DNA of 64,000 bases, taken from the IMG/VR virus record IMGVR_UViG_3300045988_162656, one strand, 5' to 3'. The stretch comes from a virus (lineage: Duplodnaviria > Heunggongvirae > Uroviricota > Caudoviricetes). The notes under the pieces were generated by a model, which worked only from the letters and a program-made list of their open reading frames with translations, had not been told where the DNA came from and made no database searches. The translations under genes and the position numbers were made by a program. Position 1 is the first letter of the stretch. Every line of letters begins with the position of its first letter. This document shows positions 1 through 30,125 of the stretch, piece after piece.

Positions 1-15
1 GTTAAAGTTGCCATA

Positions 16-537
16 TCACTCTCCTTTGATGCGAATGCCTGTTGCAATGCTGTTTATGATGCTGTCAGTGCATGGAGTAGAAAGCTGGGCATCTCCAGCA
101 ATTTTCATGACCTCAACATCCGCATATCGAATACCGAGGTGTATCAGACCGGCTATACCTGACTTAAGTCGAACATTTTCCATAAACAGATCTTTTTCCC
201 GCTGTTTAGCGGCTTCCAACTCCATCGACAATTTTTCCAACTGCTCTTTATGCTTCTTGTATTCCTGATACGCGTGCCAAGACTGACCTTTGCGCACACT
301 ATCAGTGATATCAGCAACCTGCTCCGGTGTTAGCGTGGTCAGTGGCTGTGCTGGAAAAATCATCACTTTCCCGGCATCCCAATCAAAACCCGCCTGAATT
401 GACTGAACCTCAACTGATGGTGTTGAACCGATGCGACCAGGCGAATGAACAACGATCGTTACATCCATATCGCGACGATGGCTGTGGTTGTTGGACAAAA
501 TACGATTCACCAACTCAGAAAATTTGGAAAATTTCAT
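16..537 (-). CDS. hypothetical protein; C-terminus ends GIRIKGE, the same tail as the gene at 859..1389
   Basis: ORF track 16..666 trimmed to ATG (cat 535-537) overlapping the upstream stop; last 24 nt identical to 858-881; no recognisable domain. Confidence 0.45.
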
Positions 538-857
538 GCTGATCCCTCTTTCTCTCCCCGGATAATTCTGTTGCACACATCCACACACTCGTCGCAGATG
601 AAAACGGCGTCCCCAGCAATTAACTTTTTGACGGCGTACTGGGATTTGTTGCAGAAGCTGCAACAAAGTGTTCGCCTGACTGATAAGGATGGAGCGCCAG
701 ATGTCAGCCGCTCCATATCGTTCTTGCGACGCAATATCACACGGCTGAACTCAACCAGTTTCTCCGGGGATATCTCCTCCTCCGTAGCAAGCGCCTCTAA
801 TCGTTCGAGTATGTGGAAGGCTTTTTTCTGGGTAATTGCAGAATGCGATGTGGTCAT
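534..857 (-). CDS. small zinc-ribbon protein resembling the ClpX N-terminal zinc-binding domain
   Basis: Motif CCSFCNKSQ...[17 protein letters not shown] matches the ClpX C4 zinc-binding domain pattern as I recall it; start ATG (cat 855-857) preceded by AAAGGAGAG; ORF track 534..899 trimmed. Confidence 0.5.
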
Positions 858-858
858 C

Positions 859-1389
859 TCACTCTCCTTTGATGCGAATGCCAGCGGCGCGGGAATCATT
901 CCATCGCTTTACTTCTTCACGAATTACGTCAATGCATTCTTTCGAATCCATTAGGTAATCTTCATCAAAAAGACGTTCCTGTTCGTTTTCTATCGCAACA
1001 ATGATTGCTTCAACTAACTTTTGTGCCTGAGAATCACTTTCTAACTCTGCTATGCGCTTACTTCCATCCGAGATAACGCCCTCGTAATACTCACGCTGCT
1101 CGTTGAGTTTTGATTTTGCCAACTCCAGTTGTTTTGTTAGTTCCGCAATACGGCAAACATCGTTGATACGCGTTTCCTCTAATGCGTTGATCTCATCCAG
1201 TAGTGCCAGCACGGTTTCTGGTCCGGCCAGAAATTTGAAGGCGTTGAGGGCATCAATATCAACACCGCTATCTTTAAGTTCCTGTTCACTTAACAAGTCA
1301 TCATCAGCTGGCAACATTAACAGGCGTTCCATTGCTGGAATTGCACGTTCCGCCACCTCACGCAGTGCCTGGTAATTAATTTCGCTCAC
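859..1389 (-). CDS. hypothetical coiled-coil protein
   Basis: ORF track; GTG start overlapping the upstream stop (GTGA), SD AAGGAGG 6 nt upstream; ends GIRIKGE. Confidence 0.5.
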
Positions 1390-1928
1390 TGGTTGCCTCC
1401 TTTGCGAAGCTGGGCAGCAAAGTCAACTAACCACTCAGTCATTTCAACCTTCCCTACCAGGTCTGAACCAGGGTGCATACAGCAATCACTCTGCGCCGCT
1501 TTGAAATCCTTATACTCATATTCTTGGGCCACCAGATTTTTTGCAGCTTCTATAGCAGCATCCACCCCCTGCGCACGTACTTCAGCCAGAAAAGCATCGG
1601 TGGCTGGAGTCTCCGTTAATTCGCTAACCCAATTATCTCCGTGTTCCTCGGCACACATCGCATCGAATGCTCGCTCAGATTCTTTCAGGGCTGCATTCTC
1701 CGCCGCTAATGCGTCTCTCTGCGCCCGCAACTTCTCAATTTCGGCAGCCATGTAGTAACCAACCATAGCGAAGACGGCAAAAGAGTTGTCTGCCTCATCA
1801 GGCGACACTGAGGCCATTAGCAGACCATCGTAATAATCGTGACTCCCATTGGTGATCGCCACCGCATAGGAGTCGTGGTTCTCACGCTTGTGAATGAGAA
1901 CTACGGGGTTTTCGATTTTGTTACTCAT
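1386..1928 (-). CDS. hypothetical protein
   Basis: ORF track; ATG preceded by the conserved initiation region GAAAAACACATG. Confidence 0.5.
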   Translation of the reverse strand: MSNKIENPVVLIHKRENHDSYAVAITNGSHDYYDGLLMASVSPDEADNSFAVFAMVGYYMAAEIEKLRAQRDALAAENAALKESERAFDAMCAEEHGDNWVSELTETPATDAFLAEVRAQGVDAAIEAAKNLVAQEYEYKDFKAAQSDCCMHPGSDLVGKVEMTEWLVDFAAQLRKGGNQ

Positions 1929-3212: not shown

Positions 3213-4898
3213 TCATTTAACGCGTTTGAAAACGTATACGCTGACTGTGATCCCTGTGTCTTCAAACTCGTTGGTAAACGACTTCCCTCTGGCATAAACG
3301 TAATTATCCATCGTCATCCAGTCCAGTATTGGCGCAGTGCCCGGCAATACTGCTACAAGACGCCCGCCGACTTTCAGATGCCCCAGCGCAGCCAGCGTGT
3401 GCTCTCTATGACGACCAAGCGAGTACGGCGGGTTCATAACGATTTTGTCGAACTGATAACCTGCGTTGTCCTCAGACCACTTTATGAAGTCGCAGCAAAT
3501 CGTGTTCGTATACCCTTTTCCACGCAGGATATCAGCGAAGAGAGGTGCGATTTCTATGCAGGTAACATCTTCCAGATCGGCGTTAATATAGGCCAGAAGA
3601 TCCCCACGTCCGGCTTGAGGCTCCAACAGCTTCTCACCAGGCTTCAATTCAGTGGCTCTGGCAACGTACTCAGCAATCAAGCGTGGGGTAGGGTAGAACT
3701 GGTGTGATTTTGTATCCGGTATTAAACCGGTAGCCACAATCGTATTTAGCGTATGGCCGATCTCATACGGGAACTGCCAGTGCTTTTTCTCCTGCACGCC
3801 GCCAATGAAGCTCAGTGTGCGCTCAAGCTCTTCCACCTGCGACTTCTGGAGAGCTGAATCAGAGAAGTACCATACGCCTTTGTCTTTGCTCAATCGCCCG
3901 TCACGAAGCGCAGTGCGAACCGGCACGGAGATCGTCTTCTGGATTAACCCGAACTGCTTTGGTGCCCGTGTTTTTGGCGCAGTTCGGCATGGCGCGGGGA
4001 TTGCAGCAGGCATACTGTAAGCCAGCACCTCATTCAACTTCCAGGCCACGTCAGGATGTATTTCAAAGTGAACGTTGCCGTTCTTGAACATCTTCACGCG
4101 CATCAGATTTCCATCGACGTTCATCCAGTCACCGGTCTGGCAGTCGTTTGCCCGATACGCAGCTGATAGCACCTCAGCAGTGCGGTTGATGGTAATAAAT
4201 TCTTTGTGCGCGAAGAAATGAAGCAAGACACGCAGATCGTCGATGTAGTCCTCTTTGCGATAGTTCACGCTAACGCTGTCACGCCAGAAATCAGAAATGC
4301 AGTCAGCGATTATCAGACGCTCGCTGAAACCGTTTGTCTTATTTGTCTTGTGCGCAGGACTCAGCGCCTTAAACAAGCCATACACGCGCTCAGAGAGATA
4401 TTTGTGCCTGTCATTCAGCAAATTAAGCATCGTTGGTATGACCGTTTCTGCTTTGAACTCCGGTACACCAACGAACTCTTTAACCTTCATCTGATAGCCG
4501 GTTCTGTCAGTTTTGATGACTTCCTGCTTGCCCTCGATAAATAGCTCACGCCACTCGTCGCGACGGGAAGCTGGCATGATCAGCAGAACGTTAGTCATAT
4601 CCGTAACCTTCCTCCAGTACTCGGCCCAAATATTCTGTTTCACCCATTCCAGATCGACGTTATCCAGCCAGACTCGATTCAAACGTGAGCGATCTTCATC
4701 TGGTCGGTGGTTTAGTCGAAGCAGGCGATTAATCATGTTGTGGCGTTCATCGCCATAAACGAAGTCGTGTACCTGATACATGAAGGAGATCTCTTTCTCG
4801 CACTCGGCCACAATTTCGTGGATGACGTTCATTTCCTGTCGATAGTCGATAGCAGTGTTTGAGCTGGCATCGCCCATGATGGAAAGGGCTGTATTCAT
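3213..4898 (-). CDS. putative N6-adenine DNA methyltransferase with large N-terminal domain of unknown function
   Basis: C-terminal third carries LEPQAGRGDL (motif I-like) followed by NPPY (motif IV), the order seen in N6-adenine MTases; N-terminal ~350 aa unrecognised. Confidence 0.6.
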   Translation of the reverse strand: MNTALSIMGDASSNTAIDYRQEMNVIHEIVAECEKEISFMYQVHDFVYGDERHNMINRLLRLNHRPDEDRSRLNRVWLDNVDLEWVKQNIWAEYWRKVTDMTNVLLIMPASRRDEWRELFIEGKQEVIKTDRTGYQMKVKEFVGVPEFKAETVIPTMLNLLNDRHKYLSERVYGLFKALSPAHKTNKTNGFSERLIIADCISDFWRDSVSVNYRKEDYIDDLRVLLHFFAHKEFITINRTAEVLSAAYRANDCQTGDWMNVDGNLMRVKMFKNGNVHFEIHPDVAWKLNEVLAYSMPAAIPAPCRTAPKTRAPKQFGLIQKTISVPVRTALRDGRLSKDKGVWYFSDSALQKSQVEELERTLSFIGGVQEKKHWQFPYEIGHTLNTIVATGLIPDTKSHQFYPTPRLIAEYVARATELKPGEKLLEPQAGRGDLLAYINADLEDVTCIEIAPLFADILRGKGYTNTICCDFIKWSEDNAGYQFDKIVMNPPYSLGRHREHTLAALGHLKVGGRLVAVLPGTAPILDWMTMDNYVYARGKSFTNEFEDTGITVSVYVFKRVK

Positions 4899-29384: not shown

Positions 29385-30125
29385 TTATGGCAGTAATTCT
29401 TTACCGCTTTCCATTTTGGTGATAGAGACAGTAGGATCATCGTTAATGCATGATTCTGTGCCTAATGCTGCTAACCCTTTACGCATAACCGTGCCCGCAA
29501 CATACGCCTCAATCTCCGCCTTTCCAGATGAGACAATTTCATCCATTTGTTCCTGCATTAATTCGGTAGCAAAGCACAGATTTTCAGGAAGGTTAGCTAC
29601 AGCAGATGCTAGTTTTCTATATAGTTCTTCAAGGTCACGTTTTCCAGCTCTTCCTTTTTTCACAAGTTCACCTAGCTCTGAAACTTGCTGATTAAGTCGA
29701 TCAATCTCACTATTCGTAGCGGCCTTTATTTGATCGTTGAATTTTTGCCGAATACTTTTTTGCTCGGCAATATCATGAACTCTAATTGAGTCTCCAATGG
29801 TTTTATATGAAATAGTGCATGGCACACCTTCGCCCACTCCAAAACTGCTAACCATAGCAGCCCATTGTGCCTGGCTAAGTCTAATTTCAACTAAAGGCCG
29901 TCTATTGCAACTTCTTTGTGGGCGGGTTCGTTCATTGTCTAAGGACAGTTCCGCCTCGTAAACGCCTATTTCAATATAGTCTCTATGTTCCAGTTCTGAA
30001 TCAAATAGGCGAATGCCAGTTGTGCTAACACGGCTTGTTTTCACAAGACCGAACGCTGGATGTGTTTGAATTTTTTCCCCATGTTTATTAAGGGTCGTTT
30101 TTGGTTCTTCAATTTTTCTTTTCAT
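29385..30125 (-). CDS. hypothetical protein
   Basis: ORF track; SD AGAGGT. Confidence 0.5.
   Translation of the reverse strand: MKRKIEEPKTTLNKHGEKIQTHPAFGLVKTSRVSTTGIRLFDSELEHRDYIEIGVYEAELSLDNERTRPQRSCNRRPLVEIRLSQAQWAAMVSSFGVGEGVPCTISYKTIGDSIRVHDIAEQKSIRQKFNDQIKAATNSEIDRLNQQVSELGELVKKGRAGKRDLEELYRKLASAVANLPENLCFATELMQEQMDEIVSSGKAEIEAYVAGTVMRKGLAALGTESCINDDPTVSITKMESGKELLP

Follow-up and report, generated by a model that had tools for sequence, protein, structure and literature searches.

A 24-bp sequence as a putative junction of exchanged cassettes in an SSU5-like phage-plasmid, and a stand-alone homologue of the ClpX zinc-binding domain

Why should two phage genes that are not paralogues end in the same 24 base pairs (bp)? 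The question is raised by the first 1,928 nucleotides (nt) of the virus record IMGVR_UViG_3300045988_162656, of which a stretch of 64,000 nt was analysed (hereafter the window). Positions 1-1928 hold five genes end to end, all on the minus strand, the last of which runs off the window. Two of them, encoding proteins of 176 and 173 amino acids (aa), terminate in an identical 24-mer, GGCATTCGCATCAAAGGAGAGTGA (24/24 matches, at 859-882 and 16-39), which we call J1 and which is translated as GIRIKGE-stop. Between them lies a gene for a 107-aa protein resembling the zinc-binding domain (ZBD) of ClpX. The first-pass annotation had proposed either a ClpX decoy accompanied by protease-targeting tails or a duplicated coupling cassette. 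Its observation of an identical 24-bp repeat at two gene ends was correct, while its coordinates (15-38 and 858-881) were one base off. Our comparisons suggest that the repeat is a junction between exchangeable modules, that the tail is its by-product, and that the ClpX-like protein is a genuine ZBD homologue with no particular tie to the tail.

Spread and reassortment of the J1 sequence

On the minus strand of the window, J1 copy A occupies 850..882, its core at 859-882 being followed by G and then by ATG at 857-855, and copy B occupies 7..39, its core at 16-39 being followed by T and then by ATG at 14-12. This second ATG confirms the further start codon reported earlier at 12-14. The similarity between the copies reaches 33 nt at 91% identity (7-39 against 850-882), and no such repeat pair arose in 100 dinucleotide-preserving shuffles. 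A Shine-Dalgarno sequence (SD), AAAGGAGAG (AAGGAG), is located 6 nt before the ATG, and its predicted pairing with the 3' end of 16S rRNA amounts to -9.1 kcal/mol, against -5.4 kcal/mol for a mutated control. Both the position and the predicted pairing bear out the earlier proposal that the 24-mer supplies the SD of the next gene.

The exact 24-mer was present in at least 120 IMG/VR contigs and in 169 phage records, including lambda, HK630, Stx1 and Stx2 phages, and P22-like phages of Salmonella. Of 5,426 complete E. coli genomes, at least 1,450 carried it, as often as six times per genome and mostly in chromosomal prophages. For 124 copies, we grouped the 60 residues that precede the tail on the one side and the complete downstream products on the other. 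The former fell into 11 unrelated C-terminal modules and the latter into 10 unrelated families; 35 combinations of the two were seen, with 67 complete four-gamete squares. A start codon (ATG or GTG) stood exactly 1 nt past the TGA in 121 of the 124 copies. With one representative taken for each upstream/downstream combination, the information content was maximal over the 24-mer and TGA-N-ATG, partial for approximately 9 nt upstream, and close to zero past roughly -9/+28. J1 thus has the attributes of a boundary sequence, namely unrelated flanks on both sides and, as the combinations and squares indicate, modules that have been reassorted. On the basis of these alignments, J1 appears to be a population-wide module junction of lambdoid-type accessory cassettes (the 'ea22 region').

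One of the modules that end in J1 (U9, in locus L089) looks like an HNH/AP2-type homing endonuclease, and HNH endonuclease genes are annotated beside J1 in some genomes (H112, H5). Judging from these annotations, HNH-type genes near J1 may actively drive some of the cassette moves.

A second joint, J2 (GGAGGCAACCAGTGAG, 1385..1400, minus strand), combines an SD (GGAGG) with a GTGA stop/start overlap. Its sequence (GGAGGCAACCAGTGA; GGAGGCA[A/G]CCAGTGA) encodes ...KGGNQ-stop, and its 65 copies in the loci fetched lie behind at least seven unrelated modules and ahead of several different genes. J2 therefore appears to be another common module joint that behaves like J1. In p09EL50 and the closest plasmids, an 84-aa cassette (241 bp) is bracketed by J2 repeats (CTCACTGG(C/T)TGCCTCC), and the downstream one of these repeats is translated in another frame in the cassette of p09EL50. 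The window has a single copy of the repeat and is without the 84-aa gene, which all of its closest relatives have (1385-1400 against L001 7376-7630).

A corresponding presence and absence is seen at J1. The 843 bp between the two copies in the window comprise the ClpX-like gene and the 173-aa gene, and the comparison with locus L117, an empty site in which the same Ea22 C-terminus is directly joined to the 87-aa gene, suggests that this 843-bp unit is a J1-bounded insert. The gene sets of p09EL50, Cyrano, SP15_P2, and pERB3f3 differ between conserved flanks, which are a DUF4942 methylase on one side of the array and S24 peptidase/ApbC on the other. The relatives of the window are plasmids of approximately 106-111 kb from E. 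coli and Shigella with 97-100% identity, and they include p09EL50 (O104:H4 2009EL-2050) and the phages CMS-2020a, PhiR41_1, and Cyrano. These similarities place the window in an SSU5-like phage-plasmid whose cassette array is hypervariable. The contiguous arrangement of its positions 1-2000 was not found among the matches listed from the phage, plasmid, and E. coli collections. In pERB3f3 (L140 7478-9434), blaCTX-M-15 and ISEcp1 are inserted right beside the same cassette array.

DNA-level conservation and the alternatives

When all 2,304 synonymous codings of G-I-R-I-K-G-E-stop were scanned, 106 of 120 matches proved to be one sequence and the remaining 14, of three types, were one base off; none differed by two or more bases. 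In seven contigs, J1 lies behind an in-frame stop (55-nt gap, unrelated gene to the next ATG). In lambda, J1 is intact after ea22, the ATG downstream of it is lost (TGAGATCGG, compared with TGAGATGATCGG of the 63-aa gene in other phages), and ea8.5 starts approximately 190 nt beyond J1; this arrangement suggests that the lambda copy is the relic of a lost cassette. The lambda site is at 29824-29894 (L141 625-695).

The same upstream module ends in TGIRIKGE-stop before the 87-aa gene in the window and in AGIFTKEGAAR-stop before the 61-aa gene in pERB3f3, SP15_P2, and Cyrano. Since the tail of one upstream module switches with the gene that follows, the terminal codons move with the downstream gene. 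The upstream protein ends in G-I-R-I-K-G-E because any upstream open reading frame reads through J1. Taken together, these patterns argue that J1 is conserved at the level of DNA and not of the peptide, and that the GIRIKGE tail arises as a side product of the junction DNA, with no function as a peptide. The '+GE' end is common to all Ea22 proteins, and its significance has been described as unknown (PMC7093339). Because K-G-E corresponds to AAA-GGA-GAG, which is the SD of the next gene, this motif is probably explained: the '+GE' ending of Ea22 proteins is probably the translated SD (AAA/AGA-GGA-GAG) of the downstream cassette. A literature search on 'GIRIKGE' found nothing.

We propose that the array would draw on the same pool of small cassettes as the exo-xis/ea22 region of lambdoid prophages. 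In J1, the SD (AAGGAG) and the upstream stop codon are followed, after a single base, by the start codon of the next gene, an arrangement that would tightly couple the translation of any incoming gene. J1 would also serve as a patch of perfect homology at which co-resident phages would exchange, insert, or lose cassettes. At 24-33 bp, J1 is about as long as the shortest homology on which RecA- or Red-type recombination operates in E. coli. While the distribution of J1, its sharp edges, the reassortment of its flanks, the presence or absence of cassettes at both junctions, and the conservation of its DNA rather than of the peptide come directly from the comparison, we infer that recombination takes place inside the 24-33 bp themselves, and likewise the enzymes behind it.

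We assign a probability of about 85% to this account as a whole, that is, to J1 and J2 as module junctions, the tail as a by-product, the exchange of cassettes, and the stand-alone ClpX ZBD homologue. Several points weigh against it. Because the IMG/VR and E. coli collections contain redundant entries, their copy counts exceed the number of separate events, although cluster-level counts are unaffected. No recombination event was seen directly, and breakpoints were placed where similarity ends. Furthermore, four third-codon positions upstream of the SD are invariant; recent spread or gene conversion could explain this, and it could also reflect an RNA role, such as that of a weak CAUUC...GAGUG hairpin partly covering the SD.

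This last point bears on the possibility that J1 is kept mainly as a signal in cis beyond the SD, such as a coupling hairpin or a target of a nuclease or regulator, with reassortment as a side effect. In agreement with such a signal, third-codon positions outside the SD do not vary, four of five flank contexts contain the 5-bp hairpin CAUUC/GAGUG, both stem variants (C3>U and G21>A) keep pairing, and one J1-ended module is the HNH/AP2-like protein described above. However, the hairpin is weak, the NIGIKGE variant breaks one stem pair, the three variant types are too few for covariation to be truly testable from them, and no dedicated enzyme co-occurs with J1. Structured RNA at J1 was rejected after folding of the five flank contexts, since the z-scores were near zero in four and the only internal structure was the weak 5-bp hairpin. 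The fold of the ClpX-like context (835-905, minus strand), in which codons 4-7 of the ClpX-like gene (CAUUCU) are paired with the SD and start region, was the sole one of the five below random energy (z = -2.05). We consider a cis signal of this kind improbable. A local tandem duplication within this element would account for two direct copies 843 bp apart, and the same two-copy spacing is seen in loci L053 and L097; nevertheless, the flanks of the two copies are unrelated on either side, neither the genes upstream of the copies nor those downstream are paralogues, and identical junctions with other flanks occur in hundreds of other phages. A J1-bounded insert, with its empty site in L117, fits better, and tandem duplication is very improbable. 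The earlier idea of a duplicated coupling cassette came closest to the present reading in its coupling cassette, and failed in the duplication, as the junction is common to hundreds of phages including lambda.

That GIRIKGE is a functional peptide, either a degron or a tag bound by ClpX or its ZBD, working together with the neighbouring ClpX-like protein, we find hardly credible. The window itself invites this view, since two tail-bearing genes flank the ClpX-like gene, and the amino acids of the tail are strictly conserved. In contrast, the fixed codon choice would not be expected under selection at the peptide level, and J1 is kept in untranslated or relic contexts. The ClpX-like gene is next in only 4 of the 124 J1 copies, and the E. 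coli genomes with J1 number at least 1,450, compared with 108 that have close copies of the ClpX-like gene. Elsewhere, the ClpX-like gene is preceded by other tails, ...NIEGERK-stop in SP15_P2 and ...FEGKR-stop in D6, or by a partition operon in P88, and the gene downstream of it ends in GIFTKEGAAR-stop in pERB3f3 and SP15_P2. A C-terminal ...RIKGE-COOH is also unlike the known classes of ClpX C-terminal degrons (ssrA-like LAA, MuA-like RRKKAI). The co-occurrence counts, the other tails, the tail swap, and the copies of J1 that do not end a protein all contradict the decoy with protease-targeting tails envisaged in the first-pass annotation.

The ClpX-like protein and its neighbours

The 107-aa protein (534..857, minus strand) matched the Pfam model PF06689 (zf-C4_ClpX) with 57.4 bits over residues 65-100, the cut-off being 27, and a phmmer comparison with the E. 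coli ClpX ZBD structures gave E = 1e-14 with 28 of 41 residues identical. With the NCBIfam ClpX models TIGR00382 (cut-off 359) and PRK05342 (cut-off 371), the scores were 41.9 and 39.7 bits, and the match covered no more than their first 46-48 positions or so; the protein has no AAA+ module and falls short of what defines the unfoldase. These scores agree with the initial description of a ClpX-like C4 zinc ribbon without AAA+. In the AlphaFold model (mean predicted local distance difference test, pLDDT, of 77), helices at residues 10-26 and 31-53 are followed by a disordered linker and the ZBD, and the 10-residue blocks of residues 61-100 average 78-87. A Foldseek search of PDB with this model returned ClpX ZBDs as all of the top eight matches, with root-mean-square deviations of 1.6-2.0 Å (71% identity), and the next match had E > 0.5. 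Structure prediction thus points to ClpX and not to a generic, unrelated zinc ribbon.

The ZBD lies at about residues 62-102, and its C66, C69, C88, and C91 (CxxC...CxxC) are invariant in 37 sequences, as are F68, G82, V85, I87, D89, V92, and C95. F68 and I98 align with F16 and I46 of ClpX, residues of the hydrophobic pocket that is used by lambda O, trigger factor, SspB, and RssB (PMC7804408). From its sequence and predicted fold, the 107-aa protein appears to be a genuine ClpX ZBD homologue fused to a rare helical hairpin. Against full equivalence stands the Pro of the 'AGP' conserved in ClpX, which is replaced by D, E, or Q in most members of the family; therefore, the binding properties may differ from those of ClpX. 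The P88 branch has retained AGPSVYIC...DLCN, a sequence that E. coli ClpX alone has in common with it in this alignment, and these residues hint at capture from an enterobacterial clpX.

The N-terminal hairpin was found in the same family only among 1.84 billion representatives, bar one other match. The hairpin (window 678-857, minus strand) matched the repeated helical unit of a 650-aa eukaryote-like protein, P0122, at E = 6.6e-5 for the whole library, which we rejected as probably a compositional similarity. Read by eye, the N-terminus of P0122 is apparently ubiquitin-like. A viral structure library contained no match to the 107-aa protein better than E = 0.03, and the protein matched phrog_6797, a PHROG without assigned function, at E = 2.9e-58.

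The full-length family is limited to temperate elements of Escherichia and Salmonella, namely SSU5-like phage-plasmids, P1-like (D6) phage-plasmids, and P2-like prophages of the P88 type. Close variants of the gene (at least 85% nucleotide identity) were present in 108 of the 5,426 E. coli genomes, and 103 of these 108 (95%) were on plasmids. No conserved partner of the gene was found, and the genes that follow it in P88 and D6 bear no relation to that of the 173-aa protein (E = 16 and 22). In the P88-type prophages, a pair of genes for ParM (StbA_N/ParM_N) and Plasmid_stab_B is located between the replication gene gpA and the ClpX-like gene (L123 2129-2440 and 1165-2124; L142-L146 3439-4714); a P2-like phage would not be expected to carry genes for plasmid partition.

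As to function, the analogy with ClpC2 (PMC10030653) and the known roles of the ZBD make it most likely that the protein would act against recognition by ClpXP, as a decoy, a sponge, or a partner in heterodimers, although we hold this tentatively and at less than even odds. The protein would titrate adaptors or substrates at the hydrophobic pocket of its ZBD, or would pair with the ZBD of ClpX itself. Interference with ClpX recognition is thus a plausible candidate role. In a PNAS study of 2006 on ZBD specificity, the isolated ZBD is said to inhibit in trans. A more specific proposal, which the sequences make possible and which we regard as rather doubtful, is that phages and phage-plasmids encode a mimic of the ClpX N-domain that would reprogram ClpXP and stabilize proteins needed for plasmid-prophage maintenance. 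The targets of such a mimic would be SspB, RssB, lambda O-type initiators, and ClpXP-labile antitoxins, or the ZBD of ClpX by way of the private hairpin. The plasmid location of the close variants noted above, and the ParM/ParR genes beside the P2-like variants, are of interest for this proposal. If it is true, the protein would be the first virus-encoded decoy of the ClpX recognition domain. A literature search on phage-encoded ClpX inhibitors turned up no phage protein consisting of a ZBD only, and one on 'zf-C4_ClpX' turned up unrelated work only.

The remaining genes of the run are as follows. The first, on the minus strand at 1386..1928, encodes a 180-aa protein (phrog_492) that ends in ...LRKGGNQ-stop by readthrough of J2 and had no match in Pfam, NCBIfam, or PADLOC. 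It is followed by the 176-aa gene (859..1389, minus strand, GTG start), the product of which ends in ...AAGIRIKGE-stop and belongs to the Ead/Ea22-like family according to Pfam PF13935 (85.3 bits, cut-off 27). After the ClpX-like gene comes the 173-aa gene (16..537, minus strand), a mosaic of phrog_6026 in its N-terminal part, phrog_368 in its middle, and phrog_11761 in its C-terminal part, ending in ...ATGIRIKGE-stop. Its C-terminal module is joined to Ea22 N-termini in other phages. The next cassette starts on the minus strand at 1..14 (MATL..., ATG at 14..12), and corresponds to the 87-aa gene of p09EL50 (downstream family D3).

These genes are tightly joined throughout 1-1928, by a GTGA overlap at 1389-1386, TGA-G-ATG at 861-855, an ATGA overlap at 537-534, where the ATG of the 173-aa gene overlaps the stop of the ClpX-like gene, and TGA-T-ATG at 18-12; such joints support the translational coupling claimed at the outset. 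The 173-aa and 180-aa proteins had no Pfam match to Ead/Ea22, yet they have mosaic PHROG segments in common (phrog_368). The genes at 16-537, 859-1389, and 1386-1928 match segments 16-151, 1-171, and 111-239 of phrog_368, respectively. This pattern probably indicates intragenic mosaicism in the Ea22-type family through common coiled-coil segments. RefSeq already labels the proteins as 'ead/Ea22-like family protein', 'ClpX C4-type zinc finger protein', and hypotheticals. No operon promoter was found on the minus strand at 1929-2066. A PADLOC scan of the operon proteins for defence systems was negative, and only the nearby methyltransferase matched methyltransferase (MTase) models. That 561-aa protein (3213-4898, minus strand; phrog_6263), with DUF4942, an N6-adenine methyltransferase domain, an NPPY motif, and weak PADLOC mad2/MTase matches, is encoded by the gene that forms a conserved flank of the cassette array.

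Comparison with known systems

Within the ClpX-like protein, the closest known counterpart is the E. coli ClpX ZBD (PDB 1OVX, 2DS5-2DS8), which has the same C4 fold, the four Cys residues, the F16/I46 pocket, and 68-71% identity over approximately 40 residues. Unlike ClpX, the 107-aa protein is without AAA+, has an extra N-terminal hairpin that occurs only in its family, and in most members has another residue in place of the Pro of AGP. ClpC2 of mycobacteria, which stands alone and is homologous to part of the ClpC1 N-domain, is a molecular sponge (PMC10030653); its architecture, a separate N-terminal part and a copy of the recognition domain, is comparable, and the logic of competing for N-domain ligands would be the same. 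SPO1 gp53, an adaptor-like phage modulator of ClpCP (PMC6873191), provides a precedent for the modulation of a Clp protease by a phage. Both differ in that they concern the unfoldase ClpC and not ClpX, have other folds, and come from other organisms. The stand-alone ClpX-domain protein, annotated and uncharacterized, is a cheap and well-defined candidate for viral manipulation of ClpXP, and we see in it the only part of this work with real upside.

Lambda Ea22 ends in an identical ...AGIRIKGE encoded by the identical 24-mer, and the 176-aa gene of the window belongs to the same Ead/Ea22 family. The Ea22 literature (PMC7093339; PMC10834534) treats +GE as a protein motif, whereas our data indicate a translated SD. 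More generally, conserved C-terminal peptides in the accessory genes of phages need not be functional motifs. The boundary-sequence concept is published and the genes were annotated; what is new here, a DNA-level explanation of the Ea22 '+GE' motif and the reach of J1 over lambdoid prophages and phage-plasmids, adds modestly to it. A single 24-bp junction ties together the cassette pools of lambdoid prophages and of P1-like and SSU5-like phage-plasmids and is found in approximately a quarter of complete E. coli genomes. This reach bears on how the accessory and resistance-adjacent regions of phage-plasmids diversify.

Clark, Inwood, Cloutier and Dhillon reportedly described seven boundary sequences in 2001 (J Mol Biol 311:657). 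PMC3029335 cites Clark et al. 2001 for boundary sequences as recombination foci. Like J1 and J2, the lambdoid boundary sequences are short and conserved, lie at module edges between unrelated flanks in the early/metabolic region, and have been proposed as foci of homologous recombination by which modules are reassorted. We therefore place J1, on its sequence context, in a known class as a putative phage module boundary sequence. In contrast to the lambdoid examples, J1 also occurs in SSU5-like and P1-like phage-plasmids, and it is an SD-stop-start unit that dictates the tail of the upstream protein.

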